From positions 452,514-516,513 of the forward strand of contig JARVJP010000009.1 of the NCBI GenBank assembly GCA_029776065.1: a stretch of DNA of 64,000 nt. Reading direction: 5' to 3'. Of this stretch, positions 23,972 through 57,610 are shown piece after piece. The translations under genes were made by a program, and so were the position numbers. How positions within the stretch are numbered: position 1 is the first letter of the stretch; each line of letters starts with the position of its first letter. The notes beneath the pieces are model-generated. The model had not been told where the DNA came from, ran no database searches, and saw nothing but the letters and a program-made list of their open reading frames with translations. Source of the DNA: Nitrososphaeria archaeon. Lineage in GTDB: Archaea > Thermoproteota > Nitrososphaeria > JACIWG01.

Positions 23972-23974
23972 TAA

Positions 23975-35600: not shown

Positions 35601-35697
<97 letters not shown>

Positions 35698-35784
35698 TTA
35701 AACCCCACATTTAGAATCTCCACCAAATTTTGTTACAACCCTCTACGCATGAAGTCCACTTCTCCTAGGCAAAGGGGTATTTGA

Positions 35785-41269: not shown

Positions 41270-42622
41270 TTGGCTCGTATACTACCAGGTGTTGAAATAC
41301 GTGTAGTTAAAGAAATTGTTCCTCAACAACTTCGTCCCGCCGGTGTCGTAGGCTTATTGGGGACGGCTGAGAAGGGTATTCCATTTGAAGCCGTTCCAGT
41401 AACCAGCTATAGAGAGTATATGGAAAAGTTCGGTTCCAACACTGACTATACGCTAACAAAGGACGCTAGGCTCGCATTTTTAAACGGGGTATCCCAAGTA
41501 TTCGCTGTGAGGGTGGAAGGGGAGCCAGGTAAGCCAGCAGAGATTGGTTTAAAGGACGCTAATGGCAACCCCTCCGTGCTGTTGAAGGCTAGAAGCCCAG
41601 GGCCTGTTGGAAACAATATTGAAGTCGTAGTTATGAGAGGCTCGCAGGAGAACTTGATTCGTCTAGAACTCAGTGATGGAAAGATATCTGAGGCCTTTGA
41701 CGACTTGACAATGGAGGCAGCGAATGAGAGAAATCTTGTTTCATTCTTGAACTCTAAGTCTAAATTGGTTCTAGCAGAAGACGTGAGTAAGAAGAAGTTC
41801 CCTGCGAACACCCCCGCTCCTTTAGAAGCTAAGCTTGCAGGAGGCACTCCTGAGACAATATCAAAGAGCTCTGTGGAAAAGGCCCTTCAAGCCTTTGAAC
41901 TAGAACCAGATATCGATATTGTCTTGGCTGCGGACATAAGTGACCCTGCAGTTCATGCGCTTGTTGACGCCCACTGCAAGAACATGAGTAAAGATGCAAT
42001 GAATAGGATTGGAGTGGGCACAGTGGCTCCTGGTGAAAGCGTTAAGGATATCGTTAAGAGGACAGAGGCGCTTGCAAGCGATAGGTTTGTCTTAGTCGCA
42101 CCTTATGGTGTGGCAGGTGCGGTTGCAGGCCTGCTGAGTAGTCTATCATATTACGAATCACCTACCTTCAAAACTCTGACAGGCATCGATAGTGTAGAGA
42201 AAAGATACTCTCCATCAGAGTTAACGGAACTAGTAAAGGCAGGTGTCTTAGCTGTAGAAATGAGGAGAGGGCGTGGTATAATTGTAGAGAAAGGTATCTC
42301 GACAAGTCAGGAGCAGATCAGTGTAACAAGGGTGGCAGACCGTGCTGTAAGAGGGGTGAAAAACGTAGCTGAAAACTTCATTGGTACATTAAATAGTCCA
42401 GGAGGGAGAACTGCTTTAAAAGAGAAGATAACAGAGTTCCTACTCTCTATGGAAAAGGAGGGTTCTCTTGTGCCTAGTGTTGATGGTAAGAAGCCTCCTT
42501 TCATAGTTGATGTTTACTCTTCAGAAATGGACTTCGCGCAAGGAATAGTTAGAGTAGATGTTGCTGTTAGGCCTGTGAGAGCTATCGATTACGTGTATGC
42601 CACGATAACAGTGGAGGTTTGA
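41270..42622 (+). CDS. contractile tail sheath protein (P2 FI / CIS sheath)
   Basis: N-terminus ILPGVEIRVVKE...PAGVVGLLGTAEKGIPFEAVPVTSYREYMEKFG is the hallmark sheath N-terminal signature. 450 aa. Confidence 0.85.
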   Translation: MARILPGVEIRVVKEIVPQQLRPAGVVGLLGTAEKGIPFEAVPVTSYREYMEKFGSNTDYTLTKDARLAFLNGVSQVFAVRVEGEPGKPAEIGLKDANGNPSVLLKARSPGPVGNNIEVVVMRGSQENLIRLELSDGKISEAFDDLTMEAANERNLVSFLNSKSKLVLAEDVSKKKFPANTPAPLEAKLAGGTPETISKSSVEKALQAFELEPDIDIVLAADISDPAVHALVDAHCKNMSKDAMNRIGVGTVAPGESVKDIVKRTEALASDRFVLVAPYGVAGAVAGLLSSLSYYESPTFKTLTGIDSVEKRYSPSELTELVKAGVLAVEMRRGRGIIVEKGISTSQEQISVTRVADRAVRGVKNVAENFIGTLNSPGGRTALKEKITEFLLSMEKEGSLVPSVDGKKPPFIVDVYSSEMDFAQGIVRVDVAVRPVRAIDYVYATITVEV

Positions 42623-42633
42623 GGTGAAGAAAG

Positions 42634-43035
42634 GTGTCTAATCCGTTTATTGCGTCTGCAAACGTTAGTGTAGTCAAAGTTGACGGGGAGGTCATACCGG
42701 GTGTACAGTCAATCGAATGGAAGATAATAAGAAATAGGCAGAACGTGTACAATATTGGTTCACAAGAGAGAGTTGGTGTTGACGTTGGCCCACTGTATGT
42801 TCATGGGCTGATCAGGGTTAGATCAACTTCAACGAAATTAGATGAGCTTCTACTGAAGGAGGTTAAAGACCTTAAGCCTGTTCAGATTCTTGTCCAAACC
42901 ATGTTAAGGACGGCGAAGGTTAAGGATATATCATTCGACGACGCATACGTTGAAGAAAAGACTTTCTCTATCGACTCTAATGGTGTTGGCATTAGCGTCT
43001 ACACCTTCACAGCAACTAGAGTGAGAGAAACCTAG
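42634..43035 (+). CDS. tail tube protein (P2 FII / CIS tube)
   Basis: 133 aa, VVKVDGEVIPGVQSIEWKIIRNRQNVYNIGSQER tube-family pattern. It sits immediately after the sheath gene. Confidence 0.7.
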   Translation: MSNPFIASANVSVVKVDGEVIPGVQSIEWKIIRNRQNVYNIGSQERVGVDVGPLYVHGLIRVRSTSTKLDELLLKEVKDLKPVQILVQTMLRTAKVKDISFDDAYVEEKTFSIDSNGVGISVYTFTATRVRET

Positions 43036-43037
43036 CT

Positions 43038-43409
43038 ATGCCTAAGAAGCTGTCAAAGGACTTGATCCTTGAGGGAGCGAATAGGAGGGAGACGGTATAC
43101 CTTAGAGAATATGATGCTGAAGTCGTAATAAAACCATTGACAGACGGCGAACTATCAAAGATCTTTTCATCCATAGGAAGTGTTCCTCTAAAAGAAGATG
43201 GAACTCCTGACATAGGGAAGATCGATATCTCAAAGAACTTCGAAATCCTCCGCCTCGCTGCAGTCGAAGGGCTCGTTGAGCCAAAGCTCGCTCTAAAAGA
43301 ACTAGAAGCGATGAAGTTTGGTGTCCCCGAGTTCATAGGTATGAAGGTCTTCGAGATCAGTGGCGTAGTTAGAGGTACTGAGGAGGCTAAAAAAAAAGTT
43401 AGAAGTTGA
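43038..43409 (+). CDS. tail assembly chaperone-like protein (P2 gpE analogue)
   Basis: 123 aa acidic protein between the tube and the tape measure. It ends just after an A9 run, with a long open +1 frame beyond. Confidence 0.4.
   Translation: MPKKLSKDLILEGANRRETVYLREYDAEVVIKPLTDGELSKIFSSIGSVPLKEDGTPDIGKIDISKNFEILRLAAVEGLVEPKLALKELEAMKFGVPEFIGMKVFEISGVVRGTEEAKKKVRS
43389..43397 (+). promoter_or_regulatory. A9 homopolymer: candidate programmed frameshift site (or indel hotspot) at the end of the chaperone gene
   Basis: GCT AAA AAA AAA GTT AGA AGT TGA. The +1 frame is open for 71 codons (43399..43614, including LCLDCGY), and its TGA overlaps the GTG start of the next gene. Confidence 0.4.
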
Positions 43410-43610
43410 AAGCTTCGTAAGAAGCCAGGAAGGCCAAGAACTCGCCACACTATGTCTTGACTGTGGGTACAAGCTTGCCGAGAGTCCCAGAGACTTAACT
43501 CGAGATCAAATTCTTTTTTTGATAGCTGCTCTGGCATTCCGTGCAGAACAGTTAGCGCAGGCAAAGTTGTCTGCACAGGGAATAACAAGAATCAACATAT
43601 CAGAAGGGGG

Positions 43611-45359
43611 GTGAGGAATGAAAGGTTGGAAATTAGGGAAATATTAAGTTCGCTGATTAAAGAAATAAATAGGGTTTTAGCTACGCTTGGGGGAGTACTG
43701 TATAAACCTATAAACAACATCTTCTTGTCTTGTTTGAACATCCTTAAGGTTAGTAGTGACGTTTTCAATAAAATTGCCGATTTCGGTGTCTACGTTTTTC
43801 CCCCTTATTTAAGAGCTATCCAATATAACCTTTTTGAGGAAGGGGTAGAGGTTAAACCGTCTTCATCTCAGCTTATTCAACCGAGTTCGGTTCTACAACC
43901 TCATATTAGCTACTCTCTTGAATTTATTAAGAAGTTGCAACCAACAAGGATAAGAGGTAAAGTGAAAGCTGGTGTTGAAGAGTCTTCAATCTCCTATTAT
44001 CCTTTGACAACGTTTTACGATGATCTTACTGCTCTCACCACTCCTGTCACACTAGTTACTAGTAAAATGGTTAAATCAAAACCTTATACTCTAAAGGCTC
44101 AACAAAGGATGATTAAGGAGCAGATTATTGCTCAAGAAGTTACTCCATCTGTTAAGACGGTTTCAGACTCATTTACCGTGTTAAGAGAAGTTTTTAGAGT
44201 ACTAAGCCTGAAACCAGCTATGATACAGTATGGAAAGAAAACTGCTCTAGGACATACTGATGGAATATATTATGAGATTCTCCCAGAGACGTCTAAAGGC
44301 TTTGATCTAGCGCTTACTTCGGTAATAAGTGCTATCAGTCTACCTTTATATTTGATGTCTGAAGCTGAGTTGTATAAGGTTAAAGGTGAGGCACTACCTT
44401 CTGAGACTGAACTAATTCGCCATATTGAATATTCTTCTGTTCCAGCTTACAGGCCAGTTCTATCCCCTCCTTTAACAGATCGAGACCACCTTTTGATACC
44501 TTTGTTTATATTAGCTTTAAGCTGGGTATCTAAATATATTAAATCACCCCTTCAGCCTCTCCAAAAGAGTTACTTGGACTACATCACTTACTCTAAACAA
44601 GCACTTGATGTTGCAGTTAAACCATCTGGTTTAGGGCCGTCTACTGTCCCCCTATTTATACCACATATTCAAAGTCGAATCGAGTCTTATTTATATTCCA
44701 AAGAGAGTTTAAGCGCTATAGAACAGGCTTACTCGGTCACTCAAAGAGTAGTACCCAGTTTCCCAACATCTAGTGTATTTACTTACTCCCCTGTCAAACA
44801 GCTTACTGAATTTATGGTAGATCTTCAGCCTCTTCTTTTAGGGGCCTCCCATGTCCCATATTCGGACCAACTTGAAGCACATCCTTTGAGTATGTATAAA
44901 GTAAGCGTGTCTTCTATAGCTCTATCAGATTTTCACCCATTTAGACATATGCCTGCTTCCATGGTTAAAGCTTTGATGTTTACTAGACATGCTTTGAATA
45001 AAGTTTTACCATCAAGTTATTTGATGACAGTAGACGGATTTGTCATTAAACAAATAGATATAGTGAGGTTAGAGACCTCATCTCCTCTAGTGACCTCGTC
45101 TATCGAATACACGAGGACGATACGGGAATTTAGGATGGCTGAATTAGAAGCTGAACAGGAAATTTTAGCCTCCAAATCTTACCCATCTTTGAGTACTGAG
45201 AAACCTCTGCTCACCCCATCCTATCTCATACCAGAAGTCCAAAACATCTTTCAAATCACCGTTCCAGAGGAGTCAGATTTAGATCTAAAAGAGTTAGAAA
45301 GAAAGATTACGCGCATTCTTAATGAGCAAGTTCGGAGGTATTATGGTTACCTAAGTTGA
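43611..45359 (+). CDS. tape-measure-like protein (P2 gpT analogue)
   Basis: 582 aa, Ser/Leu/Pro-rich with no enzymatic motifs. It is positioned after the chaperone as in P2 and R-pyocins. Confidence 0.4.
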   Translation: MRNERLEIREILSSLIKEINRVLATLGGVLYKPINNIFLSCLNILKVSSDVFNKIADFGVYVFPPYLRAIQYNLFEEGVEVKPSSSQLIQPSSVLQPHISYSLEFIKKLQPTRIRGKVKAGVEESSISYYPLTTFYDDLTALTTPVTLVTSKMVKSKPYTLKAQQRMIKEQIIAQEVTPSVKTVSDSFTVLREVFRVLSLKPAMIQYGKKTALGHTDGIYYEILPETSKGFDLALTSVISAISLPLYLMSEAELYKVKGEALPSETELIRHIEYSSVPAYRPVLSPPLTDRDHLLIPLFILALSWVSKYIKSPLQPLQKSYLDYITYSKQALDVAVKPSGLGPSTVPLFIPHIQSRIESYLYSKESLSAIEQAYSVTQRVVPSFPTSSVFTYSPVKQLTEFMVDLQPLLLGASHVPYSDQLEAHPLSMYKVSVSSIALSDFHPFRHMPASMVKALMFTRHALNKVLPSSYLMTVDGFVIKQIDIVRLETSSPLVTSSIEYTRTIREFRMAELEAEQEILASKSYPSLSTEKPLLTPSYLIPEVQNIFQITVPEESDLDLKELERKITRILNEQVRRYYGYLS

Positions 45360-45889
45360 TAGGTGGTAGCTTGAATATAAAACTTGATGATATAGATCTT
45401 GTGAAAAGAGTTGACGAGGAAGGCGTTAGGGAGGTTAGGAGCATACTCAACGTTACAATTTTGGGTAAACGTCATGTGAAAGAGTTTAAAGTACCAGGGC
45501 TAGAAGGTAACGTCTTTCAAGACTTAGGACGTGATTCTTTGACGATAATAGTAGAAGGGTTACTTACTGGTCTAAACTCAAAGGATACTTTTAAAGAGAT
45601 GAACTCTAAGTTTAAACTCGGTCGACCGATACCCTTTATCACCGATATTCCATCTTTGACTGAAATATCGGAAGTTGTAGTTGAAGGTTTTAAGGCGAAG
45701 GTTGTCAGCGGGATGTCTTTAAACTATTGGTATCTCCTAACACTTAAGGAGCATAAGAGTAGTCCTCCGAAGCAATCTGAAGTGCCTAGTCAAGAAGAGA
45801 CAGCAAGAGAGGAAACTAAAGAAGCTATAAAGCAGATCCGTAAGGAAGTAGAGTTAAAGTCGGAGGGAAAGGCGCCACTAAAAGGGTGA
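45356..45889 (+). CDS. tail protein, gpU-like by position (hypothetical)
   Basis: 177 aa, overlapping start/stop with its neighbours. Assigned by synteny only. Confidence 0.3.
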   Translation: MIGGSLNIKLDDIDLVKRVDEEGVREVRSILNVTILGKRHVKEFKVPGLEGNVFQDLGRDSLTIIVEGLLTGLNSKDTFKEMNSKFKLGRPIPFITDIPSLTEISEVVVEGFKAKVVSGMSLNYWYLLTLKEHKSSPPKQSEVPSQEETAREETKEAIKQIRKEVELKSEGKAPLKG

Positions 45890-46980
45890 AGGAAGTTGGA
45901 GGGATCTATTCTTTCCGATTAAGTTGGAGAATGGTGACGCAAATGCTCTTTCCAAATTATAAAGTTGAAGTAGGATCTGAAAGCTTTAACCCTGATTCGC
46001 AGTCGATCGTTGGGTTTAATATCAAGTTGGGCTTAGGCCCAAAGGTGGATAGTTTCGAGCTCTTGTTGGTGAAGGATGATCGGAGCTTAAAGATTACTCG
46101 AAACGATTTCGTCAACGTATTTTTAGGGTACGAAGATGATATGGAGAAGGTGTTTTCTGGTTTAGTTGAAACAGTAGAGAAAGGTATCTCGACTGTTAGG
46201 GTTTTTGGGCTAGCTTTCTCAGTGAACTTCCTTTTGTTTAGGATAAATAAGGTGTACCTTAATCAAACGGCAGGGCAGATCGTTTCCGATCTCCTCTCTT
46301 CCGTGAAGCAAAGGATGAAAGAAGTTAAGTGGTTTCCTGTTGAAGAAGGGCAGATAATGGATGGCTTAAGCTTCCCAGTTTACGTTGTTGATAACCGTCT
46401 AAGTGCCTACGAACACATAGAGAAGCTTGCTAAACGATCTAATTACGTATTTTATATATCGTCTGAAAATAAGCTCTTTTTTAAAAAATTTGAAGAAGGC
46501 GAAGTACAAGTACTTAAATACGGAAGGGACATTATTGAAGTGAACGTGACTAAAATGGTTGGTCAATACGATTCGGTTATTGTTTACGGTGAAAGCCCAT
46601 CTAGTTGGTCTGGTCGTGAAACCTACCATTGGCTATCTAAACGAGAGGTTTTTGGGCTTGCCTCTTATAGTTCCACCGAAGGCCAGAAGGAGGTTTCAAG
46701 GAGGCACTTGCTTACAATGCAAGACTCAGTTATAAAGGATGGCGACACAGCATTTACCACAGCAGGAAATGTAGCAAATATTGTTAACAGCGAACTTCAG
46801 GTAGTATTAAAAGTTGTGGGGAGCTCTAAGTTAAAGGTTAACGATACCGTAAAGGTGGAGGGATTAGAAGGTGATGCTTTTAATTCCCAGTTAAGAATTG
46901 TTGAAGTCGAGCATTACTTAAGTAGGGTCGATGGGTTTACTTCGATTATAACATGTGTGCCGGAGGAGAAAGCGTTATGA
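45886..46980 (+). CDS. baseplate hub protein, P2 gpD-like by position
   Basis: 364 aa, a similar size to gpD, in the U-D-V order. Confidence 0.4.
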   Translation: MKEVGGIYSFRLSWRMVTQMLFPNYKVEVGSESFNPDSQSIVGFNIKLGLGPKVDSFELLLVKDDRSLKITRNDFVNVFLGYEDDMEKVFSGLVETVEKGISTVRVFGLAFSVNFLLFRINKVYLNQTAGQIVSDLLSSVKQRMKEVKWFPVEEGQIMDGLSFPVYVVDNRLSAYEHIEKLAKRSNYVFYISSENKLFFKKFEEGEVQVLKYGRDIIEVNVTKMVGQYDSVIVYGESPSSWSGRETYHWLSKREVFGLASYSSTEGQKEVSRRHLLTMQDSVIKDGDTAFTTAGNVANIVNSELQVVLKVVGSSKLKVNDTVKVEGLEGDAFNSQLRIVEVEHYLSRVDGFTSIITCVPEEKAL

Positions 46981-47696
46981 GTATTGTAGAGTTGATAAAG
47001 AAGATCGCAGAAAATGAAGCTAGAAAGATCCACACTATCGAATTAGGTGTTGTAACATCGGTGTTTCCTCACTCGTCTCCTGATGATAAAGATAACTATG
47101 AATGCAACGTAAAACTCAAAAATATGGATTTAGAGCTTCAAAGGGTTCAAATCGCTACACCGATAATCGGTCTAGCTGAGCCACCAAGAGTAGGGGATCT
47201 GGTTCTAATTGCATTTGTCAATGGGGATATCAACTTACCAATTTTGATAGGTCGGCTGTATAATGATGAAGACCGTCCTCCAATAAATGACTTAGAAGAG
47301 GTAGTTTATATCCCCAAATATGAAAGAAACCCCGAACGGAGGCGAGTCTACCTGGAATTTCCTGAAGGGATAGTTCTCAAGGTTACTGACGACGACGTGA
47401 TGGTTAAGACTGGTGAAACGAAGGTGGTTATCCAAAGAGATGGCGATGTTCTGATAGAGTCAAAGGCTAACATAACAGTGAAGGCGGAGGGGGATGCTAA
47501 GATAAAGGTGAAGGGGAGCCTTTCGCTTTCAGCAGCTTCTATAGAAATGGAAAGCGAGAAAAATATGGGTATAAAGGCAGGATCAGATTTGAACATTAAA
47601 TCAGATAGTAATATTGAATTAAAGTCTAGTAGCCAGATGAAGGTTGAGGCTAGTGCTGAAATGAATATAAAAGGAGCGAAGGTGAACATTAACTAG
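46953..47696 (+). CDS. baseplate spike protein (P2 gpV / gp5-like OB-fold plus beta-helix)
   Basis: GDLVLIAFVNGDINLPILIGRLYNDEDRPP matches the Phage_base_V OB-fold motif. The C-terminal repeat run ITVKAEGDAKIKVKGSLSLSAASIEMESEKNMGIKAGSDLNIKSDSNIELKSSSQMKVEASAEMNIKGAKVNIN is beta-helix-like. The true start is probably an internal codon (MSIVEL). Confidence 0.65.
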   Translation: MCAGGESVMSIVELIKKIAENEARKIHTIELGVVTSVFPHSSPDDKDNYECNVKLKNMDLELQRVQIATPIIGLAEPPRVGDLVLIAFVNGDINLPILIGRLYNDEDRPPINDLEEVVYIPKYERNPERRRVYLEFPEGIVLKVTDDDVMVKTGETKVVIQRDGDVLIESKANITVKAEGDAKIKVKGSLSLSAASIEMESEKNMGIKAGSDLNIKSDSNIELKSSSQMKVEASAEMNIKGAKVNIN

Positions 47697-48119
47697 GTGA
47701 AGCTTGTGTCTAATTTGTTGAAAGCAGATTTGAAATTGAAAATTGTTGATGGGGGTGCTGATTTCTCGATTCAGGAGGGGGATTTGGAGATTGTAAGCGA
47801 AGAAGATAATCTAGCACAGTCCATTATACATAGGCTTATGACTGGTAAAGGTGAGCTTTCTGAATTGGGGCATCCAGATTATGGGTCAAGGCTAAATGAT
47901 ATTTTAGGCCAGCCGAATAACGATGAGACAAAGGGTAGAGCTCGAGCTCTAGTATTAGACTGTTTATCCCAGGAAACCAGAATAAAAGATATACTAGATG
48001 TAAAAGTTGAAGCAAATAGGCTTGACTCACATAAGATCGACATAGAGATCTTCGTTGTACCTGTTGGAAGCAATAAGCCTCTAGGTGTTTTTTATTCTCA
48101 ATCTCTCGAAGTGATCTGA
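47697..48119 (+). CDS. gp25/GPW-like baseplate wedge protein
   Basis: LAQSIIHRLMTGKGELSELGHPDYGSRLNDILGQ matches the GPW_gp25 signature; 140 aa. Confidence 0.75.
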   Translation: MKLVSNLLKADLKLKIVDGGADFSIQEGDLEIVSEEDNLAQSIIHRLMTGKGELSELGHPDYGSRLNDILGQPNNDETKGRARALVLDCLSQETRIKDILDVKVEANRLDSHKIDIEIFVVPVGSNKPLGVFYSQSLEVI

Positions 48120-49690
48120 TGCCGTTAGAGAAGAAGAGTTACAGGCAGATTGTAAACGACATCCTGAAGCGACTCGGGGAAACATATGAACAGTTCACCT
48201 ATTCCAAGGCTAAGGCAAGGTATTTTCTATCAGGAAAGGCCATTGAAGTAATCGCAGTACAAGGAATCTCTAAGAACGCGAAAAAGGAGTTTAAGAAGGA
48301 TGTTGACTACAAGTTCTCTGAAAACTTCATCGAATGGCTCTACGAAGGGGAGCGACCAGATGAGGGGACAGAGTTCACAGTTGTGTACAAGTCGCAGAGG
48401 CCAGAGATTACCGATACCGCGCCAGGTAGTGTCGCGAGGACTTTGATAGAAGCGATAAGCAGAGAAATAGAGTACCTAAATGAACTTATATGTCAAGCAT
48501 ATGATGCAGGATTTATTGATACCGCGTCAGGGGACTCATTGGACTTGGTCGTCGCTATATTGGGTATTAGAAGAAAACCACCTCAACCTGCTTCAGGATA
48601 CGTTACCTTTGGAAGGCGCACCGAACCCGAAAGCATCCAAGTAAAAGGTGAAGTGGTCCTATATGACGGGTCAGTTTCATATCAACTTAAGTCTAAGCTC
48701 GTAAAGGAAGTTGTTAGTGTCAAAGGCGTCACCCAAAACGTTAAGAAGAATTACAGAAAGGATATCGATTACTCTTTGGTTGGCAGACAGATAAGATGGC
48801 TGCCTAATGGTGAAAAGCCTGATGAAGGCACTACCTTTACTATCGACTATGAAGCTTATCGTGAAATCATTATCCCAAAGGGTACAAAGATTTCAACCTA
48901 TTCTTCGAAGCCTGAAGAAGTAAAAACCTATATCACAGCTGAAGAAGCTTTTCTCAGCCCTATCTCTGAAGGTGTTTGGGAGGTTGATGTGCCCGTTATT
49001 TCAACAGTCCCTGGACCTTTAGGTAATGTGCTTGCTGGTTCGGTGAATGTTCTTCCTCAGCCTTTGATGGGTATAGAGTATGTGATTAACAAGAACGATA
49101 TTGGAGGAGGGTTGGACACAGAAACCGATAGGGAACTAAGGGATAGAGCTAAACACGCCCTCGAAATAGCTGGTAAGGCGACTCTCCCATCGCTTGAAAC
49201 CGCGGTAAAGTCGGTCGAAGGTGTTAGCTCGGTGTTAGTGAAGGACACACTTGATGGTATGCCTGGTGTTGTTAAGGTTATTGCAGACGGTGGTGACCCG
49301 GATAAGATAAGGAAGGCCATTGAAGACACTAGAGCCGCAGGGATCAAAGTCGAGTTTTCTAGGCCTAGGGCTGTGTATATAGATGTGGAATTGACTCTTA
49401 TTATTGGGAAGGCTGTCTCAGAAGTTGAGGTGTCTAGAAAGGTTGAAATGTTAATTAGAAGTTATATCTCATCACTTGGTATAGGAGATGATGTCTTTTT
49501 TTACAAGATTGCTGCTTTAGCATTAGATGTACAAGGTGTTTTCGACGTTTCTGATATAGTGATCTCTTCGTATCGAGGAGGAGTCGAGGTTGTAAAGAGC
49601 GATAAAGAAAATATAGAAATTTCTGATGAAGAGAAGGCTTTGGCTCGTAACATCGTGATCTCCTTTAGAAAGGTGAATAAGGTTGAGTAG
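48119..49690 (+). CDS. Baseplate_J (P2 gpJ / T4 gp6-like) wedge protein with an internal duplication
   Basis: 523 aa. A repeated module (KKDVDYKFSENFIEWLYEGERPDEGTEFTVVYKSQRPEI vs RKDIDYSLVGRQIRWLPNGEKPDEGTTFTIDYEAYREII). C-terminal region typical of J-family proteins. Confidence 0.65.
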   Translation: MPLEKKSYRQIVNDILKRLGETYEQFTYSKAKARYFLSGKAIEVIAVQGISKNAKKEFKKDVDYKFSENFIEWLYEGERPDEGTEFTVVYKSQRPEITDTAPGSVARTLIEAISREIEYLNELICQAYDAGFIDTASGDSLDLVVAILGIRRKPPQPASGYVTFGRRTEPESIQVKGEVVLYDGSVSYQLKSKLVKEVVSVKGVTQNVKKNYRKDIDYSLVGRQIRWLPNGEKPDEGTTFTIDYEAYREIIIPKGTKISTYSSKPEEVKTYITAEEAFLSPISEGVWEVDVPVISTVPGPLGNVLAGSVNVLPQPLMGIEYVINKNDIGGGLDTETDRELRDRAKHALEIAGKATLPSLETAVKSVEGVSSVLVKDTLDGMPGVVKVIADGGDPDKIRKAIEDTRAAGIKVEFSRPRAVYIDVELTLIIGKAVSEVEVSRKVEMLIRSYISSLGIGDDVFFYKIAALALDVQGVFDVSDIVISSYRGGVEVVKSDKENIEISDEEKALARNIVISFRKVNKVE

Positions 49691-50582: not shown

Positions 50583-51232
50583 ATATGCCCAAGTTTAAAC
50601 CTGTAACGAGAAAGTCAGGTGAACTTATTAGAGCTGAAGACTGGAATAAGATTCAAGAGGACATTCAGGCTGACATAGAAGAACTGGATACTAAGATAAC
50701 CCAGCTCAGGAAGTACGTGGACAGCCTTAACGAAAGTACGACGATCCTTAATCCTGCAAGCCCAGTTGGCATGTCTTATAGTCTGACGGAGAACATTCCT
50801 GGAGAAAAGGATAACTACGTGACAACTGTTGTAGGCCCAATTACAAGGCAGTGGGCTATGGAAAGGGGAAAGGTTGGAGAGCTATGCAAATTTGGTCTCG
50901 CAGAATACTTTGAAGTACTAGACTACTGGGCTGGTGCGGAGGACGGGGATAAAAAGGCGTTGGAGATTCTCTTCGAGTACCTTGACGGAACCTCTGCGGT
51001 GGTGAGTGGCCTGTTTATACATGAGTGTTCTAAGCTTAGGCCAAAGGGAACCGAAAACCCCTTTTTAGAGTACCTTTTATCTCCAAACGAAAGAGTGTGG
51101 TACAGGTATAGAGTGAAGAACCCGCACCCAGAAAAGGAGGTTTTTAACATCACGTTTAGAAAGATCGAACCAGGGTGCATTCTAAAGATAGGGAATGTAA
51201 TAAACTTCAAGTCGAAGATGACCACCCTGTGA
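50579..51232 (+). CDS. tail-fibre-like / receptor-binding protein candidate (hypothetical)
   Basis: 217 aa. An N-terminal coiled segment (RAEDWNKIQEDIQADIEELDTKITQLRKYV) resembling fibre N-termini. Position after I. Confidence 0.3.
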   Translation: MNMPKFKPVTRKSGELIRAEDWNKIQEDIQADIEELDTKITQLRKYVDSLNESTTILNPASPVGMSYSLTENIPGEKDNYVTTVVGPITRQWAMERGKVGELCKFGLAEYFEVLDYWAGAEDGDKKALEILFEYLDGTSAVVSGLFIHECSKLRPKGTENPFLEYLLSPNERVWYRYRVKNPHPEKEVFNITFRKIEPGCILKIGNVINFKSKMTTL

Positions 51233-51239
51233 GGTAAAG

Positions 51240-51911
51240 GTGATGTTCGTAGAGTTTGAAGACAAAATCGTCGACGCTTTGAAGGCCAGCGTTAAGGAGG
51301 TTCCCAAGGGGAATATAATAGTGGGCGTAGAAGGTGATAAGGTGCCATCGATATACATATCCAATATTTTCTTCAAGATTGAGAGATCCAATCTATCTGA
51401 AGACGAAGAAGGTGAAAGAATAAATGAAGTCTTTGATGGTGATGGTTCCCAAAAGAGGTACCTGTTAAGGGGGAAACCTGAAAGTGTTCTTAGCGTTGAG
51501 TCGCCTAAGGGTAAGGTGCTTCAGATTTGGGATCAATACACAGTGAACCTAGAAGAAGGTTCGGTGACGTTTCGTCATCCTCCAGCCAAAGACTCAAAGA
51601 TAATCATTAACTATGTCTCAAAGATCAAGAAGTTGAAGGTTGTGCGGTTAAAGCTTAAGGCGAAGTATTCGTTTACCATATCATCAGAAGATCGGAGACA
51701 ACTGGATAGCACTGCTGAGGGTGTTATAAGGTCTCTTCTTAAGGTTGAGAGAGAGCTTGAACAGAAGGGCTTTTCTCTTAAACCTTCTTCTGGAAAGTAC
51801 CTTTCAGATAACAAGATCAAGTTATTTTACCATGTTGAATTAGAGATCGAGTCAGCAGAAGCGATTCCTCCGATAGAGAAGATAGAAATAAGAGAAAGTC
51901 ATGAAGCTTAA
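51240..51911 (+). CDS. hypothetical tail-associated protein
   Basis: 223 aa in the same operon; could be a fibre chaperone or terminator. Confidence 0.25.
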   Translation: MMFVEFEDKIVDALKASVKEVPKGNIIVGVEGDKVPSIYISNIFFKIERSNLSEDEEGERINEVFDGDGSQKRYLLRGKPESVLSVESPKGKVLQIWDQYTVNLEEGSVTFRHPPAKDSKIIINYVSKIKKLKVVRLKLKAKYSFTISSEDRRQLDSTAEGVIRSLLKVERELEQKGFSLKPSSGKYLSDNKIKLFYHVELEIESAEAIPPIEKIEIRESHEA

Positions 51912-51913
51912 CT

Positions 51914-52411
51914 ATGAGCCAGAAGACTAAGCTTCCATATGGGCCAGTGAAGCTATCGGTAGACGCGATTGGTTTCGAGGATGGTAGGATTGTACAGTTT
52001 GAAATATATCGGAAGAAAGGTGGGAAAGAAGAGTTGGTTAGCCAAGTTAATGGCGCTGTAGTAGACCAAAAAGCAGAGGCTAAGTGGGTACCTGAAGCTG
52101 AAGAACGCAGAATAACCTTGGGAGGCGATTCGACGGAGGCTGGCGACGTTCCGGAGGATGAGGAGTACTATTTTAAGGCAAGGATCGACGAATTGGAGGT
52201 GAGCTCTGAAAAGTTTGAGTTCACATATCCGTTAGAAATTTATTTAAAAGACGATCGTGGCAGACCATTAGATGGTCTTAAGTTTGAAATAGAGTTCTCT
52301 GATGGTAGCAAGAGGGAAGGAGTCATCAAGGATGGGTATGCGAAGGTTAAAGATGCTCCAAAGGGGCGCTTCAAGGTGAAGGTCAAAGGGTACAAATTTA
52401 AAGAGGGTTAA
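51914..52411 (+). CDS. hypothetical tail-associated protein
   Basis: 165 aa, acidic/Lys-rich, in the operon. Confidence 0.25.
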   Translation: MSQKTKLPYGPVKLSVDAIGFEDGRIVQFEIYRKKGGKEELVSQVNGAVVDQKAEAKWVPEAEERRITLGGDSTEAGDVPEDEEYYFKARIDELEVSSEKFEFTYPLEIYLKDDRGRPLDGLKFEIEFSDGSKREGVIKDGYAKVKDAPKGRFKVKVKGYKFKEG

Positions 52412-52416
52412 CTGCT

Positions 52417-54558
52417 TTGAAGAAAAAAAATGTTTGGTGTCTGATTTTGAGTGATGGTTCTGGGCAGGGTGTTGTTGGAGCAAACCTGACATTTGCAGAC
52501 GCGACCCTCTCACAAGAAGTATCTTACTGTGTACGTATTAGGCTTGGCGTTCTCCCAGAAGATTCGAACTACTCTTTGGAAGCTGAGGATCTCGCAAGTG
52601 ACGCCTATTCACCTTATGATGAAAGCAAGGATATATTGCATGAGTCCTCTATAAATCTAAGGCTTTGTATCGAAGAAAACATAGCTCATAACGGTCTTTC
52701 AATTAATGACAAGTGTACCTTTTATCGCCACTATGGGCTAATGGATCAAGTGGATGTGTTTCTTCCGTTAAGGCTTGAAGTCGTAAAGATGGAGGGTGAT
52801 GCCCGTTCCGATTTCATGGAAGAAGAAGTTAACGTCGTGTTTGAAGTCATCGATCCGGCAGAGAATTTATCCATAATAAAAGGTCCTAAGGGAAAGGGTA
52901 GAACTGGCAAGGATTTCATTAGAAACCTAGTGTATAAACAAGAGGGAGATGATAACTGCATAAGAGATTTTGCACCACGCCCTATCAGAAATCGATGTCG
53001 TCAATCAAGTTCCGATGTTGTTAATGCTAAAGACATTTTATTTGACAGAAGAAAGAACAGTTTTGAGACAGCTTCAAGTGATCCAAAAAGCGTAGTCGCC
53101 TCGATCCAAGAAACCGAGGTTGAAGAAGGTAAGAAGATAGGCGTATTGAACTTCTTCTTTCACCCGCCACCGATAGCAGGTGACAACTATAAAATTAGAG
53201 TCAAGCTAATATCGAGCTCTGGGGCAGAGGTACTATTACGTGATAAACCAGACTCAGCATTCTATCCACTTTATTTTCAGACACCAACAATCACCATCTG
53301 GAAGAAGGTTAAGGTAGAAATGGTTGCTATACAAGAGGGACTTGATTACAGCATGTTGGGATGGAGCAAGATTAAGAGAGCGTACAGGGACGCATACATT
53401 GAAATCGAAGAGGCTGCGGATGACAGAAGATACATAATCACACGTGATGAATGGATGAGTTATCTAGGTCGCGTGGTCTATGATGAATGGAGGTCACATG
53501 AATGGGAAGAATACATTAAGCAAAGCTACCACCAATACCATATAGACGACTTCAAAAAGTACTCTTTTCCGCAAGATCATACTTTCGACACACCCTCTGT
53601 ACCGAACTCTGACAGGTTAACGCCACCAGATGATGACCCTGACCATCCAAACAATACTACTTGGGAGTTTTTAGGTCGTATCGCTAGAGCGGTGATAAGG
53701 GATAAGCTAGGTAACTCTAACTATAGGAGACTTGGTCAACCAAAGAATGGTTTTAGGCTTGGGATATGTGTCTTGTTCTGTAAACCTCCCTTTGATGGGT
53801 CGACCGTCGGTGGAAGTTATATATGGGACAAGATGTTCTACATGGTCTCATCAGGGGATGTTGCGAATACGTTTGTTCACGAGATGGGGCATGCCCTTTT
53901 CTTAGACCATGGTGCCACCGCTTTCAATACAGAAGCAGATTTCCCATTTACTACTCGTACAGAGGAATCTGGTTCTTCTGGTCCATTCTGGGATAATCAC
54001 GACAGCCAAGATATGATAACTTGCATTATGTCATATGAGGTGGACTCTCCAGTTGAATGGCACTTCTGCGGTCTGTGTCTTCTGGTCTTAAGATTGTATG
54101 ATCGACACCATATGTTAAGCGGTCCAAATGATACCTTGAGGAAAGTACTCTACCCTGGTTCTGCTGACCTGTGCTGGACTGAGACTGTTAAAAATAAGGT
54201 AGTCGAACCGGATGGTTTTGAATATGAAACATTCTTCCTTAAAATTTATCGTGGTAATCCAGGCCCTATGAGTATTGGCAAGAGTCTTAGACTGTTAGCT
54301 CTATATCCCCCAGAGGGGGTAGAAAACAACCTACATCAAGATTTCTGGAAAGATCTGAGCCGTTTCCCCAGAGGTAGATGGGTTTCTAGTAATCCGAGTG
54401 TTGCGACTGTCAGTGTATCGAAAATGGGGGATTTTTGGGTTGCTCAGGTTAGGGCTTTGAGAAAGGGCACTACGAATATTTACCATGAGATAAGGAGAAG
54501 TACAGGTTGGAGTGGCGACGTCGATCGAAGCCTTCCGATGGTGATAACCGTTGTCTGA
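52417..54558 (+). CDS. large metzincin-like zinc metalloprotease domain protein (putative tailocin/eCIS effector)
   Basis: VHEMGHALFLDHG (H-E-x-x-H-x5-H), then ...ITCIMSY (Met-turn-like) in the C-terminal half of a 713-aa protein. The gene starts 6 nt after the preceding one. Confidence 0.5.
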   Translation: MKKKNVWCLILSDGSGQGVVGANLTFADATLSQEVSYCVRIRLGVLPEDSNYSLEAEDLASDAYSPYDESKDILHESSINLRLCIEENIAHNGLSINDKCTFYRHYGLMDQVDVFLPLRLEVVKMEGDARSDFMEEEVNVVFEVIDPAENLSIIKGPKGKGRTGKDFIRNLVYKQEGDDNCIRDFAPRPIRNRCRQSSSDVVNAKDILFDRRKNSFETASSDPKSVVASIQETEVEEGKKIGVLNFFFHPPPIAGDNYKIRVKLISSSGAEVLLRDKPDSAFYPLYFQTPTITIWKKVKVEMVAIQEGLDYSMLGWSKIKRAYRDAYIEIEEAADDRRYIITRDEWMSYLGRVVYDEWRSHEWEEYIKQSYHQYHIDDFKKYSFPQDHTFDTPSVPNSDRLTPPDDDPDHPNNTTWEFLGRIARAVIRDKLGNSNYRRLGQPKNGFRLGICVLFCKPPFDGSTVGGSYIWDKMFYMVSSGDVANTFVHEMGHALFLDHGATAFNTEADFPFTTRTEESGSSGPFWDNHDSQDMITCIMSYEVDSPVEWHFCGLCLLVLRLYDRHHMLSGPNDTLRKVLYPGSADLCWTETVKNKVVEPDGFEYETFFLKIYRGNPGPMSIGKSLRLLALYPPEGVENNLHQDFWKDLSRFPRGRWVSSNPSVATVSVSKMGDFWVAQVRALRKGTTNIYHEIRRSTGWSGDVDRSLPMVITVV

Positions 54559-56029
54559 AAGAAAGCCCTTAAAGTCTTCGGAAACCCCTATTTCGGTTTC
54601 AGTAGATTTTGAAGAACGTGAATACGTCAGATACGAATCAATACCTCTTTCAGTATCTATTGAAAACAAGGGTTCTTTACCAGTGAAGATCGATGAATTT
54701 ACAGTATCGAGTGAGACTTTGCAGGTTCGCATGATAGATGATTCAGGGGAAAGATACTCTGGGTCACCACTTAGTTGGCTGGCGAGGGAGGGAATACTCG
54801 TTCCACCTAAGAAGAGAAAGTCGTTCTTTCTCAGCTCAGGGCAAAAGAAGTCAATCTCAATAGATTTGATCAAGATCTTTGGAGAGCTCAAGGAGGGAAC
54901 TTATAGGGTAAGAGTTACATATCATTCTGGTGGTGTTCTGTTCGTCGACTCTAAAGTTTTTAAGGTGAAGGTTGTATCCGCTGGACCAGTGTACTCATTT
55001 ACCCCTAGGGATCTTTTTCAGCTTAATGCGCCGATACGCACTGTGTGGGTTAACTATGAAAATAACAGTTTCTATCTGTTTATTCTTGAAAACAGTCCTA
55101 ATATGCCAAAGAATATTTGGAGTTGTAGACGTATTATGGAACTGGAAAGTCGCCAGGAACCGCAGCTATCGCTTCTTGAAAGCTACGATCAAAGATATGA
55201 GCATGTAATTTGGTATAGCCAGAAGTCTGTCACAATTTTGACTATCTTGAGAACTCAGAAGTCTGAGTTCAAGAAGTTCACATCATATCTCCCGTTTCAT
55301 AAGATCATTGGCCCTCCGTTTACAATCGAAGATGGCACTTTATTCCTTCTTATAGTATCAAAAGATGATAAATGGGGATCTGCAAGCTTGTTCACGCTCT
55401 CTCCTGATGGAAGGGCGAAGTTGACAAAGTTCTTGTCATTCAAGGGTATGCTTGTTGAATGTAGTGTTCTATTTAAGCGTAGGCGGGCTTACATTGTTTA
55501 CATGCTAGAAAAGGAGCCAGTTATACACTATCTTGAATTAGACTTAAATAACTATGAAGTTTGTACAACAAGATCGATCACTTTGGAGAGTATAAAAACG
55601 CCTTATACAGGATTAACCCTCTACTACGCTTGCAGAGATAAGGAGGGGGAGCGAATGCTTTGTGCACACATCATGACCGAAGAAGTAGGTAAATATTGTT
55701 CCCAAGTAATAGATGTTGGACGATGCAGAAATGTTTTCAACCTCTTCTTCCCATCAGCTGAACGCATGAATCTAAAGTTGTTAGATTTAACCCTAGACCC
55801 AGAATGTATGCCACATTACCTTTTTCAAGATCAGTGGGGTGCCCTCTGGTATCAGTCGCCAAAGGAGATAGGGCTTCAGAAGGTCACCGCGGACGATGAG
55901 ATCTGCCCAGGTAACGTGGTTTCTCCTACACTTATTATTTCCTCTCCATCCAGTCGCCACTATGGAGTATACTTAAGATACATAAAGGACAGATCACATT
56001 TTATATACAAGGACGTTGAAAAGCTATAA
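54551..56029 (+). CDS. hypothetical protein (effector-associated or accessory?)
   Basis: 492 aa, overlapping the end of the metalloprotease gene by 8 nt. No recognisable motifs. Confidence 0.3.
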   Translation: MSERKPLKSSETPISVSVDFEEREYVRYESIPLSVSIENKGSLPVKIDEFTVSSETLQVRMIDDSGERYSGSPLSWLAREGILVPPKKRKSFFLSSGQKKSISIDLIKIFGELKEGTYRVRVTYHSGGVLFVDSKVFKVKVVSAGPVYSFTPRDLFQLNAPIRTVWVNYENNSFYLFILENSPNMPKNIWSCRRIMELESRQEPQLSLLESYDQRYEHVIWYSQKSVTILTILRTQKSEFKKFTSYLPFHKIIGPPFTIEDGTLFLLIVSKDDKWGSASLFTLSPDGRAKLTKFLSFKGMLVECSVLFKRRRAYIVYMLEKEPVIHYLELDLNNYEVCTTRSITLESIKTPYTGLTLYYACRDKEGERMLCAHIMTEEVGKYCSQVIDVGRCRNVFNLFFPSAERMNLKLLDLTLDPECMPHYLFQDQWGALWYQSPKEIGLQKVTADDEICPGNVVSPTLIISSPSSRHYGVYLRYIKDRSHFIYKDVEKL

Positions 56030-56056
56030 TTCAAACATGTGCCTTACTAAGGCCAT

Positions 56057-56605
56057 CTATTCAGGTTGAACTTTAGGATTAGCTAACCATGTGAAAGGTT
56101 TAACTTGAGGTCTCTCAAGTTTCTTCTCCTTTGACTTGATACTTGTTGGTGGCCGAGGCATCGGTACACCAACTTCTCCTATAAAGACAGTGCCGGATGC
56201 GATGACCTTACCGACAGGCAAGTCTACTGGATCATTACAAGTCATGGCTGTATCCCCGTTTCTAGCTGCTGGTTTACCGTTTATGAAGACACCAATACTT
56301 CCAACAATGATTCTACCCTGATTCGTTGGCGGCTTCTGGAAGCTTGGTCCACCAATCGGAGTATGGGCTGGAGTATTTGTTGCCGTGCTTCCAACAATCG
56401 CTGCTGGCCTTCCTTCAATAAAGACGTCGTTGCTTAGGTTGTTGTCGATTATACCATTGAATGGGTGGGGAATAGGAGTTGGCACCGGAGAACCTGGTGG
56501 TGCTGGAACCATAACAATGTGGATGTCTTGGGCAGTGATCTTGTCTCCTTGTTTAGCTGCTGGCTGCCCCACCTTTATCGCTCTCCTTGGGTTGAGCTGC
56601 ACCAC
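56057..56605 (-). CDS. PAAR-repeat protein (spike-tip protein)
   Basis: GRPAAIVGS and GKPAARNGD repeats with a Pro-rich linker; 182 aa (GTG start, which may be an internal Met). Confidence 0.7.
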   Translation of the reverse strand: MVQLNPRRAIKVGQPAAKQGDKITAQDIHIVMVPAPPGSPVPTPIPHPFNGIIDNNLSNDVFIEGRPAAIVGSTATNTPAHTPIGGPSFQKPPTNQGRIIVGSIGVFINGKPAARNGDTAMTCNDPVDLPVGKVIASGTVFIGEVGVPMPRPPTSIKSKEKKLERPQVKPFTWLANPKVQPE

Positions 56606-57494
56606 ATTTTGGACAGAATGAAGCTAGTATATTTATAACTGCTCCACAGTTTGGACAGGTCTTCGTATCTGGTCCACCAGCTGGTTGTTTGCCACACTTC
56701 GGGCATGATAAAGCATTTTCCGCCATCGATGAGCCACAATGCATGCAGAATCTCTTTGGTGGAGGCGTCGGCGGTTTCTTCCTCATTAAGAAGAACGCGA
56801 TCGCGATTACCGTTATTATAACTATGACCACGATTACTACGACTAATGTCATATCTGATTCACCGGATAGAGTCGTTGTAGTAGTCGAGGTAGTGTTTAT
56901 TGTAGTTGTAGGGGTGGTTATTGTTGAGCTAGGAGATGTAGTGGTTGAAGTTGGGAGTGTAGTAGTTGTTATTATTGTTGTCGTGCTTGTTGTGGTTGAT
57001 GTTGTAGTGGGTGTTGTTGTGGTGGTTGTTAAAGCGGTGACTTTAATGCTTAGATTTGCATAATTTTTGGCTGTACCATCTGTTCCGTTGATAAATGCGG
57101 TGTAGACCCCTGCTGCGACTGTTTTTTCAACATTTATGAAAGCTGTTGTGCTTATATTGCCATTTACTGGGGGTGTTAACTTAGAGAGTGCAAAGGATAT
57201 TGTTATACCTGTTGGCGTGGTAGAAAACAGAGACACGGTTTTATTATATCCAAAATACGAGCTAACCGTAACCACAACTTGTTTGTTACTGCCTTGTTCT
57301 ATTGTAATATTAGTGGGCTTTACAGAAATTGCATACCATGGCATAAGTGTGAAGGTTGGGGTTGGGAATGTAGGTGATATGGTTATGGTTTGTGGTGACA
57401 ATTTAGATGAGGAAACCGGTGAACTTAATATAATAAAAGTAACTACAAATAAAATCGTTATTAAATGCACTCTAGTTCTCATCTTCTTAGCCAT
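56553..57494 (-). CDS. cell-surface protein: signal peptide, Thr-rich linker, TM helix, cytoplasmic double zinc ribbon
   Basis: MAKKMRTRVHLITILFVVTFIILSS signal. Poly-Thr/Ser stretch. TM helix LVVVIVVIVIITVIAIAFFL. Then CMHCG...CPKCG and CPNCG...CPKCG. Confidence 0.5.
   Translation of the reverse strand: MAKKMRTRVHLITILFVVTFIILSSPVSSSKLSPQTITISPTFPTPTFTLMPWYAISVKPTNITIEQGSNKQVVVTVSSYFGYNKTVSLFSTTPTGITISFALSKLTPPVNGNISTTAFINVEKTVAAGVYTAFINGTDGTAKNYANLSIKVTALTTTTTTPTTTSTTTSTTTIITTTTLPTSTTTSPSSTITTPTTTINTTSTTTTTLSGESDMTLVVVIVVIVIITVIAIAFFLMRKKPPTPPPKRFCMHCGSSMAENALSCPKCGKQPAGGPDTKTCPNCGAVINILASFCPKCGAAQPKESDKGGAASS
56850..57020 (-). repeat. low-complexity Thr/Ser codon repeat inside the surface-protein gene
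   Basis: Runs of ACN/AGT-complement codons (gttgtagtagtcgaggtagtg...), coding TTTTTTPTTTSTTTSTTT... Confidence 0.6.
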
Positions 57495-57610
57495 CTCTTT
57501 AATTTCAGTCTAGGTGTTTATATACTTTAAGAAGCTTTCAATTACGTGATAATTAACAGGTCAATAACTGTGCTTAGCTGGTTCAATACAGCCTGTCCAA
57601 TGAACCTAAG

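Follow-up and report, generated by a model that had tools for sequence, protein, structure and literature searches.

A probable contractile injection system, seemingly of an undescribed lineage, in the chromosome of a Nitrososphaeria archaeon

We analysed a window of 64,000 nucleotides from the genome of a Nitrososphaeria archaeon (GenBank assembly GCA_029776065.1, contig JARVJP010000009.1, positions 452,514 to 516,513 of the forward strand; coordinates below are those of the window), in which a cluster of genes for a contractile, phage-type tail lies among archaeal housekeeping genes. The tail operon occupies 41270-56029 (+) and consists of 15 co-directional open reading frames (ORFs), tightly packed with spacings of -28 to +11 nt, the sole exception being a 201-nt gap at a recoding site. 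Two convergent genes (-) lie 3' of the operon and encode a PAAR protein (56057-56605) and a zinc-ribbon membrane protein (56553-57494). All 17 ORFs of the locus are intact and have the same lengths as their homologues. A preliminary description of the locus, made from the sequence alone, gave ORF coordinates that we recovered as stated, and the three peptide motifs that it quoted were found in the translations of the sheath, the spike and the gp25-like protein. Its count of sixteen co-directional genes has to be lowered to 15, the sixteenth product being the recoded extension of the chaperone. The convergent PAAR gene that it described is there, in a unit of two genes that also includes the zinc-ribbon membrane protein. 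Pfam families were matched at or above the curated cut-offs for the sheath, spike, gp25-like, J and PAAR proteins that it had named.

The first gene of the operon (41270-42622, +) encodes the contractile sheath, a single phage-type protein of 450 aa recognized by Phage_sheath_1 (2.9e-18; 66.7 bits against a cut-off of 31.4). The protein is 100% identical to an NCBI protein from a metagenome-assembled genome named 'Nitrososphaeria archaeon' and has more than 1100 homologues at 60-87% identity. The nearest solved sheath by sequence is Cis2 of H. borinquense (PDB 9EZM, E 7.5e-9), which is matched in its N-terminal part only, and a search of 50,697 phage records returned deposited phage sheaths at 26-27% identity at best and no P2-like match. 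The next gene (42634-43035, +) encodes a putative tube protein of 133 aa, assigned from its position after the sheath, its size and its strong conservation (mean column identity 69%); searches against Pfam, PHROG and NCBIfam and a profile search of PDB sequences gave no match.

The third gene (43038-43409, +) encodes a 123-aa tail assembly chaperone with a weak match to PHROG 344 'tail assembly chaperone' (4.5e-3), and it is conserved in 31 related loci. Its 3' end reads ...GCT AAA AAA AAA GTT AGA AGT TGA and thus contains a slippery run of nine A residues (A9, 43389-43397), from which an extension of about 72 codons in the +1 frame stays open to the start of the tape-measure gene (43389-43611). 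The frameshift site proposed in the preliminary description is borne out by this run and by the conservation of the out-of-frame peptide. The extension, KKKLEIEKFVRSPEG.ELAALCLDCGYKLAE.P.DLTRDQILFL...GVTRIVV, has an identity of 55-79% across all 31 related loci that carry the gene (31/31), and in every one of these a run of A7-A10 precedes it. Its frame is -1 in 23 loci, and +1 in the window and the other 8. Because the sign of the shift differs between loci while the A-run stays, the data suggest slippage on a homopolymer, transcriptional or ribosomal, rather than a fixed -1 ribosomal frameshift. The site is an analogue of the frameshift in phage tail chaperones (G/GT, E/E'), and recoding at poly-A in either direction makes it a neat case of conserved recoding in archaea. 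The conservation of a peptide that is out of frame is also strong evidence for selection on the clusters.

Two further genes lie between the recoding site and the baseplate. The tape-measure-like protein (43611-45359, +; 582 aa) is assigned from its position; its homologues vary from 440 to 919 aa between loci, conservation is confined to the C-terminal 40-130 residues, and it has no Pfam, PHROG or NCBIfam match. The 177-aa protein at 45356-45889 (+) stands at the position of P2 gpU or a tube initiator and has a weak match to DUF6046 (5e-3). It is present in all loci, and DUF6046 is recorded for its homologues too, except that it is unmarked in locus L042; the family profile found no match among PDB sequences. 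The names tube, tape measure and U-like had been given to these proteins before, and they agree with position and conservation while no significant family match was obtained for any of the three. A search of ten otherwise unannotated cluster proteins against NCBIfam returned nothing useful.

The baseplate genes are more readily recognized. The 364-aa hub (45886-46980, +), related to gp27, P2 gpD and Mu gp44, has a weak Pfam Phage_GPD match and was identified with a family profile (A7) that matches a VgrG (9rce, 8.3e-11), Mu gp44 (1wru, 1.1e-7), the cyanobacterial tCIS (7b5h, 3.8e-7) and the pyocin R2 hub (6u5h_C, 2e-3). The 247-aa spike (46953-47696, +) combines an OB-fold with C-terminal beta-helix-like repeats and matches Phage_base_V (4.2e-5, 24.2 against 23.8 bits). 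It is followed by the gp25-like sheath initiator (47697-48119, +; Sheath_initiator 2e-8, 34.7 against 32.9; GPW_gp25 3.6e-5) and by the baseplate wedge protein J, related to gp6 and Mu gp47 (48119-49690, +; Baseplate_J 2.1e-26, 93.2 against 21.1; DUF4815 5e-16), which has 317 homologues. The second wedge protein, related to gpI and gp7 (49683-50582, +; 299 aa), matches PHROG 1160 'baseplate protein' (6e-16), and its family profile (A8) matches the solved wedge proteins TmpF (9euf, 1.8e-5) and phi92 gp146 (1.7e-4). The profiles against PDB and the match to PHROG 1160 therefore support the D-like hub and the gpI-like wedge of the preliminary description. At the level of sequence, the baseplate core of gp25-like, gp6/J-like, gp7/I-like, gp27-like hub and gp5-like spike proteins is confirmed to be complete.

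The 217-aa protein (50579-51232, +), recognized from conservation, is predicted at low confidence to have a long N-terminal helix and a beta-rich C-terminus, and with a mean column identity of 66% across archaeal classes it is as conserved as the tube. It has 26 representatives among 1.84 billion proteins with no wider kin, no Pfam or PDB relatives and no significant match of its profile to PDB sequences, and a single-sequence structure model was poor (pLDDT, the predicted local distance difference test, 41) and unusable. This protein is a marker of the lineage. It is possibly a short fibre or a peripheral baseplate protein, and its high conservation is unlike that of a receptor-binding fibre, since receptor-binding proteins normally vary fast. 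The conserved 223-aa protein (51240-51911, +), the last core gene product, has weak matches to DUF2460 (in 8/26 family members) and Tail_completion_gp17 (2/26), and its profile finds the distal tail protein of a gene transfer agent (GTA) weakly in PDB (6tba, E 0.21); it possibly has a tube fold, as a terminator or distal-tail-like protein.

The PAAR spike-tip protein (56057-56605, -) is recognized by PAAR_motif (1.4e-11, 44.8 against a cut-off of 27). Its likely start is the GTG at codon 12 (about 56572), where the alignments of homologues begin, and in a subgroup of loci the PAAR gene stands in line between the spike and gp25 genes. In the window, the gene upstream of PAAR in the same convergent unit (56553-57494, -) encodes a bitopic membrane protein, identified by Pfam DZR and Zn_Ribbon, by its transmembrane (TM) topology and by a C-terminal motif. 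From the N-terminus it consists of a signal peptide, a 140-aa ectodomain, a Ser/Thr-rich stalk, a TM helix, the basic stretch RKKPP...KR and a double zinc ribbon, which is predicted to face the cytoplasm. The C-terminal motif KRYCMHCG..M....CP.CG..PP.G.DTK.CPNCG.VIP.VAKFC.ECGA.Q is found in proteins of 216-744 aa that adjoin the cluster in most loci. A hidden Markov model (HMM) of the motif gave 23 matches with E < 1e-20 in 784 kb, all adjoining a cluster, and other zinc ribbons scored 4e-10 or worse. The ectodomains of the homologues are variable and include a PQQ beta-propeller, PKD, Big, fn3, ANF_receptor and InlB repeats, and in most homologues an Invasin_D3/Big_1 Ig domain stands between the TM helix and the zinc ribbon. 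The cluster-specific double zinc ribbon is also fused to the C-terminus of a metzincin homologue (P0260); proteins may dock to the machine through this module. Two more small membrane proteins that end in a zinc ribbon are encoded in the window at 37490-37933 (-; DUF6114 + Zn_Ribbon) and 11786-12256 (+). Both score weakly with the motif HMM (1.8e-5 and 3.3e-4, respectively), so membrane proteins with a C-terminal zinc ribbon are common in this genome and those linked to the cluster form a subfamily of their own.

The 3' part of the operon carries three genes that are limited to a subset of the loci. The largest encodes a 713-aa protein (52417-54558, +; 703 aa at NCBI) that we assign as a metzincin-fold zinc peptidase with flanking Ig-like domains. 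The HExxHxxGxxH zinc site, the Met-turn and the metzincin fold are all present, so the metzincin motif noticed earlier is backed by a fold match. Its designation as protease cargo stands in the fold, the role being our suggestion of a candidate effector or enzymatic appendage. A search of the structure model against a viral fold library returned matches to the Ig domains only, and some homologues contain a LysM insert. The 165-aa accessory protein encoded just upstream (51914-52411, +) is fused to the N-terminus of two homologues of the 713-aa protein (P0252 and P0258), which links it functionally to the metzincin. The 492-aa protein encoded downstream (54551-56029, +) has no family match and occurs only where a homologue of the 713-aa protein occurs (loci L004, L006, L009, L027 and L044).

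Enzyme-like genes recur at variable positions in the related loci. Locus L021 has a protein with Amidase_2 (N-acetylmuramoyl-L-alanine amidase, 2.4e-30) and PG_binding_1 inside the structural operon (5018-6328). At the 3' end of the cluster, L009 encodes a zinc phospholipase C fused to an LCAT-type lipase (18396-20519, -) and L011 a 623-aa PAAR-OmpA-PG_binding_1 protein (18768-20636, -), the latter resembling the 'evolved PAAR' effectors of the bacterial type VI secretion system (T6SS). Other such genes encode a subtilase (S8) with PG_binding_1, further PG_binding_1 proteins and a reprolysin-like protein. In L001, L021 and L040 (6219-7514) the enzyme-like genes lie between the tape measure or the small protein and the hub; in L001, on a 2.25-Mb contig, CarboxypepD_reg, reprolysin-like and TPR proteins are inserted within the structural operon (15217-18727), and BLAST detected no spike homologue in this locus. 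Peptidoglycan and ester-linked phospholipids are not known from these archaea. Since the accessory enzymes would act on structures that the producers do not have, bacteria are, on the simplest reading, what the family is directed against.

The surroundings of the cluster are those of an archaeal chromosome. TIM, Sua5, Cgi121, phosphoribosyltransferase, TatD, HAD hydrolase, HycI, MGMT and PfkB kinase genes form the upstream flank, and the downstream flank contains tRNA-Arg, NucS, LSm, archaeal SAM synthetase, Rio2, CTP synthase and methionine aminopeptidase genes. NucS, SAM synthetase and Rio2 had been named before, together with a histone, of which we found none nearby; a 91-aa ORF at 10921-11196 encodes what we take to be an Alba-like chromatin protein. 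The Pfam scan took in most of the window's ORFs of 110 aa or more, and among these there was no match to capsid, portal, terminase or integrase families, as the preliminary description had claimed for the cluster; capsid genes adjacent to it, which would have made it an ordinary prophage, were not found. Head, packaging and integration genes are likewise absent beside those related loci that have precomputed Pfam annotation, and no head-to-tail connector or tail-completion gene lies upstream of the sheath in any locus. Pfam, PHROG and NCBIfam searches of the window gave no match to holin, endolysin or fibre families, archaeal lysis genes being poorly known. The cluster has the same GC content as its flanks, so we rejected a compositional island. 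The tRNA-Arg gene (57610-57686) abuts the locus by its 3' end; integration at this gene was rejected, there being no att-like direct repeat and no adjoining tRNA at related loci. An integrated myovirus was rejected as well, as the ORFs scanned in the 64 kb matched no capsid, portal, terminase or integrase family and no att-like repeat was found. The locus is not a prophage; it is chromosomal and set among archaeal housekeeping genes.

The distribution of the cluster was examined by a scan with the J alignment over one genome per species, which returned 37 archaeal loci and one weak bacterial match. The hosts belong to Nitrososphaeria, Bathyarchaeia, Methanomethylicia, Hadarchaeota, Thermococci, Methanoperedens, Methanomicrobiales and Altiarchaeales, and include the cultured methanogen Methanosuratincola verstraetei LCB70 (Methanomethylicia; complete genome CP186953.1). 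The 13 core genes, from the sheath to the 223-aa protein, have the same order across the 37 loci at 30-87% identity. The sheath is the first gene in every locus, and the cellular genes upstream of it are unrelated and differ between lineages. The HycI-MGMT-PfkB neighbours are shared by the nearest relatives, which argues for vertical inheritance within that lineage. The comparison with related genomes that had been proposed for the locus thus shows it recurring in constant order. Five independent structural families that meet in one co-directional operon of 16 kb, with 37 further archaeal loci of the kind, cannot plausibly be put down to chance. In a set of 2.9 million viral contigs, close relatives are confined to 3-4 short fragments (7-15 kb).

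The order of the genes, sheath, tube, recoded chaperone, tape measure, small protein, hub, spike, gp25-like, J and I-like, is the Mu/PBSX-type order and is the same as in Mu and PBSX tails and in the haloarchaeal virus HSTV-2. Mu and PBSX tails and the haloarchaeal myoviruses (Hafunaviridae) also have separate hub and spike proteins, as here. The family HMMs of the spike, gp25-like, J and I-like proteins match HSTV-2 gp27, gp29, gp30 and gp33, respectively (spike to gp27 at 7e-7), and the nearest J proteins among the phage records are those of haloarchaeal myoviruses at about 32% identity; comparison of the tube, 177-aa and hub profiles with single HSTV-2 proteins in hhalign gave no match. The P2 lineage and P2 gene order of the preliminary description give way to this relationship. 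The P2 arrangement is V-W-J-I-H-G ... FI-FII-E-T-U-D, whereas here the sheath comes first and the baseplate last, as in HSTV-2, and we rejected both this arrangement and close P2 kinship. The haloarchaeal myoviruses in turn have head genes, a connector and tail completion, which the locus lacks. It differs from myoviruses further by its PAAR tip, its zinc-ribbon membrane partner, its enzyme-like accessory genes and its chromosomal position with conserved synteny, and its sheath and tube have no detectable similarity to those of viral tails.

Like the R-type tailocins (the P2-like pyocin R2 and the PBSX-like diffocin), the locus encodes a capsid-less chromosomal contractile tail, its tail genes standing without head, packaging and replication genes. 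The shared parts are the minimal baseplate of hub, spike, gp25-, J- and I-like proteins, the tape measure and the chaperone, and the hub profile matches the pyocin R2 hub. The tailocins differ in their P2/pyocin gene order and in having a fibre with its chaperone, a lysis cassette and a collar or terminator, none of which we recognized in the locus. The host here is an archaeon, and the locus has a PAAR protein; P2-type spikes end in an apex domain of their own.

Contractile injection systems (CISs) were compared in the same way. The backbone of the Afp/PVC-type extracellular CIS (eCIS), the type to which dbeCIS and eCIStem refer, comprises Afp1/5, 2/3/4, 7, 8, 9, 11, 15 and 16 (Chen et al. 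2019, PMC6899500). We found no AAA+ ATPase (Afp15), Afp16 cap or LysM Afp7 protein at the locus, and its hub and spike are unfused, in contrast to Afp8 and VgrG, so that the locus does not belong to this type and the name eCIS given to it earlier is not sustained. The only AAA ATPase in the window is of Vps4/CdvC type and lies 33 kb from the cluster. The tape measure of the Afp/PVC eCIS follows the fibres, whereas here it precedes the hub, in the phage position. Like the Afp/PVC eCIS and the CIS of H. borinquense (cis1-16), the locus stands alone and has a PAAR tip and downstream enzyme- or toxin-like genes. The haloarchaeal CIS shares further with it the archaeal host, a cluster-associated membrane protein and the nearest solved relative of the sheath. 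As far as published descriptions allow comparison, this T6SS-like CIS (Zachs et al. 2024) differs in its ATPase and its 6-TM Hbor_38620-like protein, as opposed to a bitopic zinc ribbon; in haloarchaea the T6SS mode of action goes together with this conserved protein (PMC11566945). A canonical T6SS was rejected as well: no two-part TssB/TssC sheath, ClpV or TssJLM is found, and a tape-measure-like gene is present.

The bitopic protein CisA of Streptomyces is encoded where fibres usually lie and is required for firing (PMC12237407). The CIS-Sc/CisA system resembles the locus in having a bitopic membrane protein in the fibre position with one cytoplasmic face and in lacking conventional fibres. 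CisA has an exterior domain of ligand-binding type, and one homologue of the locus protein has an ANF_receptor ectodomain, which is periplasmic-binding-protein-like. CisA and the locus protein have no demonstrated sequence relationship, and the orientation is inverted, the conserved cytoplasmic module being C-terminal in the locus protein. CIS-Sc also differs in being an Afp-type system with a Cis16 cap, and it has an ATPase.

Based on these results, we consider it probable that the locus is an autonomous chromosomal CIS, a phage-tail-derived nano-syringe without a virus, and that it represents a distinct lineage. In such a machine the baseplate would assemble around the hub, the spike and PAAR, the tape measure and the chaperone would guide polymerization of the tube, and the sheath would polymerize on the tube, held in a high-energy state; contraction, set off by a signal at the baseplate, would then drive the tube and the spike through a membrane. 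How the particle is used is a separate matter. We tentatively favour a particle that works inside the producer and that the zinc-ribbon protein tethers or fires at the cytoplasmic membrane; the variable ectodomain of this protein would be the target sensor. This slight lean to a cell-bound mode follows from the variable receptor-like domains, which are on the membrane protein and not on a component of the particle. A cell-bound machine would resemble the T6SS or Streptomyces CisA more than a free tailocin. That bacteria are the targets is plausible for the family and less so for this locus; if they are, the 713-aa metzincin with its 165-aa and 492-aa partners would be a locus-specific payload or enzymatic appendage. 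The combined picture of an archaea-specific, membrane-coupled CIS that injects cell-wall- and membrane-degrading enzymes (amidase, metzincin, phospholipases) into bacteria is unlikely to hold in all of its parts.

Several observations weigh against this reading or against some of its elements. The sequence comes from a metagenome-assembled genome. The assignments of the tube, the tape measure and the tube-initiator-like protein are putative and drawn from position, size and conservation. No tail terminator or cap family was matched in the cluster, so that the locus may have no cap or the 217- or 223-aa protein may conceal one, and no AAA+ domain was found in the cluster ORFs or in the related loci with precomputed Pfam annotation. 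The zinc-ribbon gene is absent from about one third of the loci with enough downstream sequence, the copy in the window lacks the cytoplasmic Ig domain of most homologues, and the role of this protein in tethering, loading or triggering the machine, with the variable ectodomain as the recognition element, is conjecture. As to bacterial targets, the peptidoglycan-directed genes sit in related loci outside the window, the metzincin in the window has no peptidoglycan-binding domain, and LysM domains and cell-wall hydrolases are ordinary parts of phage tails that could be inherited baggage or horizontally acquired.

A different use of the same machine is as a released tailocin or extracellular CIS, with lysis of the producer freeing the particles, the 217- and 223-aa proteins or the 713-aa protein serving as fibres that bind target cells, and the particle killing these cells or delivering the protease to them from outside. 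This was one of the readings of the preliminary description. In its favour, the genes and their order match a simple myovirus tail, tape measure and chaperone included, the lack of a ClpV-like recycling ATPase fits a single-use particle, the Ig-like domains of the 713-aa protein occur in phage appendages, and the 217-aa protein may, with low confidence, combine a long helix and a beta-rich domain as short fibres do. Against it, no lysis genes, no cap or terminator and no variable fibre or receptor-binding protein were recognized, the proteins that would serve as fibres rank with the best conserved of the cluster, and the variable receptor-like domains are on the membrane-anchored protein instead. 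The membrane partner points at least equally to a cell-bound mode, and we regard a released particle as somewhat doubtful, with the tailocin claim not established.

The particle could also act on its producer, as an intracellular CIS in stress-induced death or development like Streptomyces CIS-Sc and the cyanobacterial tCIS, with the zinc-ribbon protein as a CisA-like firing factor. The gene for the bitopic membrane partner closes the cluster on its 3' side, the usual fibre site, as for CisA, and there is neither an evident fibre nor a recycling ATPase. However, the PAAR tips, PAAR-OmpA-PG_binding fusion, amidase, phospholipases and LysM of related loci make little sense against an archaeal producer without peptidoglycan and ester lipids, which renders this mode improbable. 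More remote still is a tail module of an unrecognized archaeal virus or GTA-like element with head and packaging genes elsewhere in the genome: split loci do exist for GTAs and some CISs, the baseplate is related to that of haloarchaeal myoviruses and the window is 64 kb of a 775-kb contig, but the lack of a connector or tail-completion gene upstream of every sheath, the PAAR and toxin-like accessory genes, typical of CISs and not of virions, and the lack of any long viral contig with the module make it very unlikely. A decaying remnant of a myovirus prophage, a tail module with no present function, is scarcely credible, for its phage descent, its lack of head genes and the few fragments listed as viral in IMG/VR are set against 17 intact ORFs of homologue length, 13 core genes in the same order in 37 loci of several archaeal phyla, a conserved recoding site with its out-of-frame peptide and a chromosomal position kept in near relatives.

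Catalogues of archaeal CIS clusters date from 2014-2021 onwards and a working system was shown in 2024 (PMC11566945), so the statement that such machines are at most sparsely described does not hold for archaeal CISs in general. The only functional study of an archaeal CIS concerns haloarchaea that kill haloarchaea, and whether archaeal CISs target bacteria was stated in 2025 to be untested (PMC12352652). The CIS surveys consulted report archaeal systems from a single archaeal phylum, and a recent metagenome survey drops clusters without Cis15 and Cis6; this filter may explain the single phylum. With no ATPase and no cap, the present lineage escapes eCIS pipelines. The lineage is distinct and so far nearly confined to archaea, and it seems undescribed in the searchable literature; we found no description of it in full-text searches, within the limit that Makarova et al. 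2019 (mBio, archaeal toxin systems) may mention such loci and that the 'PLTS' papers on anaerobic methanotrophic archaea (ANME) may include the Methanoperedens members. Its distinguishing features are the phage-like organization, the lack of ATPase and cap, the PAAR-linked zinc-ribbon partner, the poly-A recoding and the wide spread in Thermoproteota and beyond. The lineage is present in abundant, mostly uncultured archaea of sediments and hot springs, and its zinc-ribbon protein is a new candidate for coupling a CIS to the archaeal envelope. If the machine does attack bacteria, it would be a contact-dependent inter-domain weapon of Bathyarchaeia, Nitrososphaeria, Methanomethylicia and other archaea. 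As the cultured M. verstraetei LCB70 carries the locus (at about 1.363-1.385 Mb of CP186953.1), the question of archaeal CISs against bacteria becomes testable.

Farther upstream, the window contains further housekeeping genes and one patch of low GC (35-37%) at 18680-26646. This patch encodes a secretion ATPase of T2SSE type (21709-23259), a HerA/TraG-like P-loop ATPase (24907-26646), a weak TFIIB-like ORF and several small ORFs without family match. Either a mobile element that has integrated here or a system for DNA transfer or of pilus type may account for the patch, which appears unrelated to the tail cluster. The Vps4/CdvC-type AAA ATPase, which has an MIT domain, is encoded at 7828-9018 beside an unassigned 285-aa ORF (region 6968-9018), and an archaemetzincin (Peptidase_M54) lies at 13973-14527; with the Alba-like ORF, these genes are markers of the host's lineage. 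A third tRNA-like match in Rfam (34.9 bits, 85 nt) at 35606-35690 (+), not called by ARAGORN, overlaps an antisense ORF without family match (35289-35726) and may be an intron-containing archaeal tRNA.

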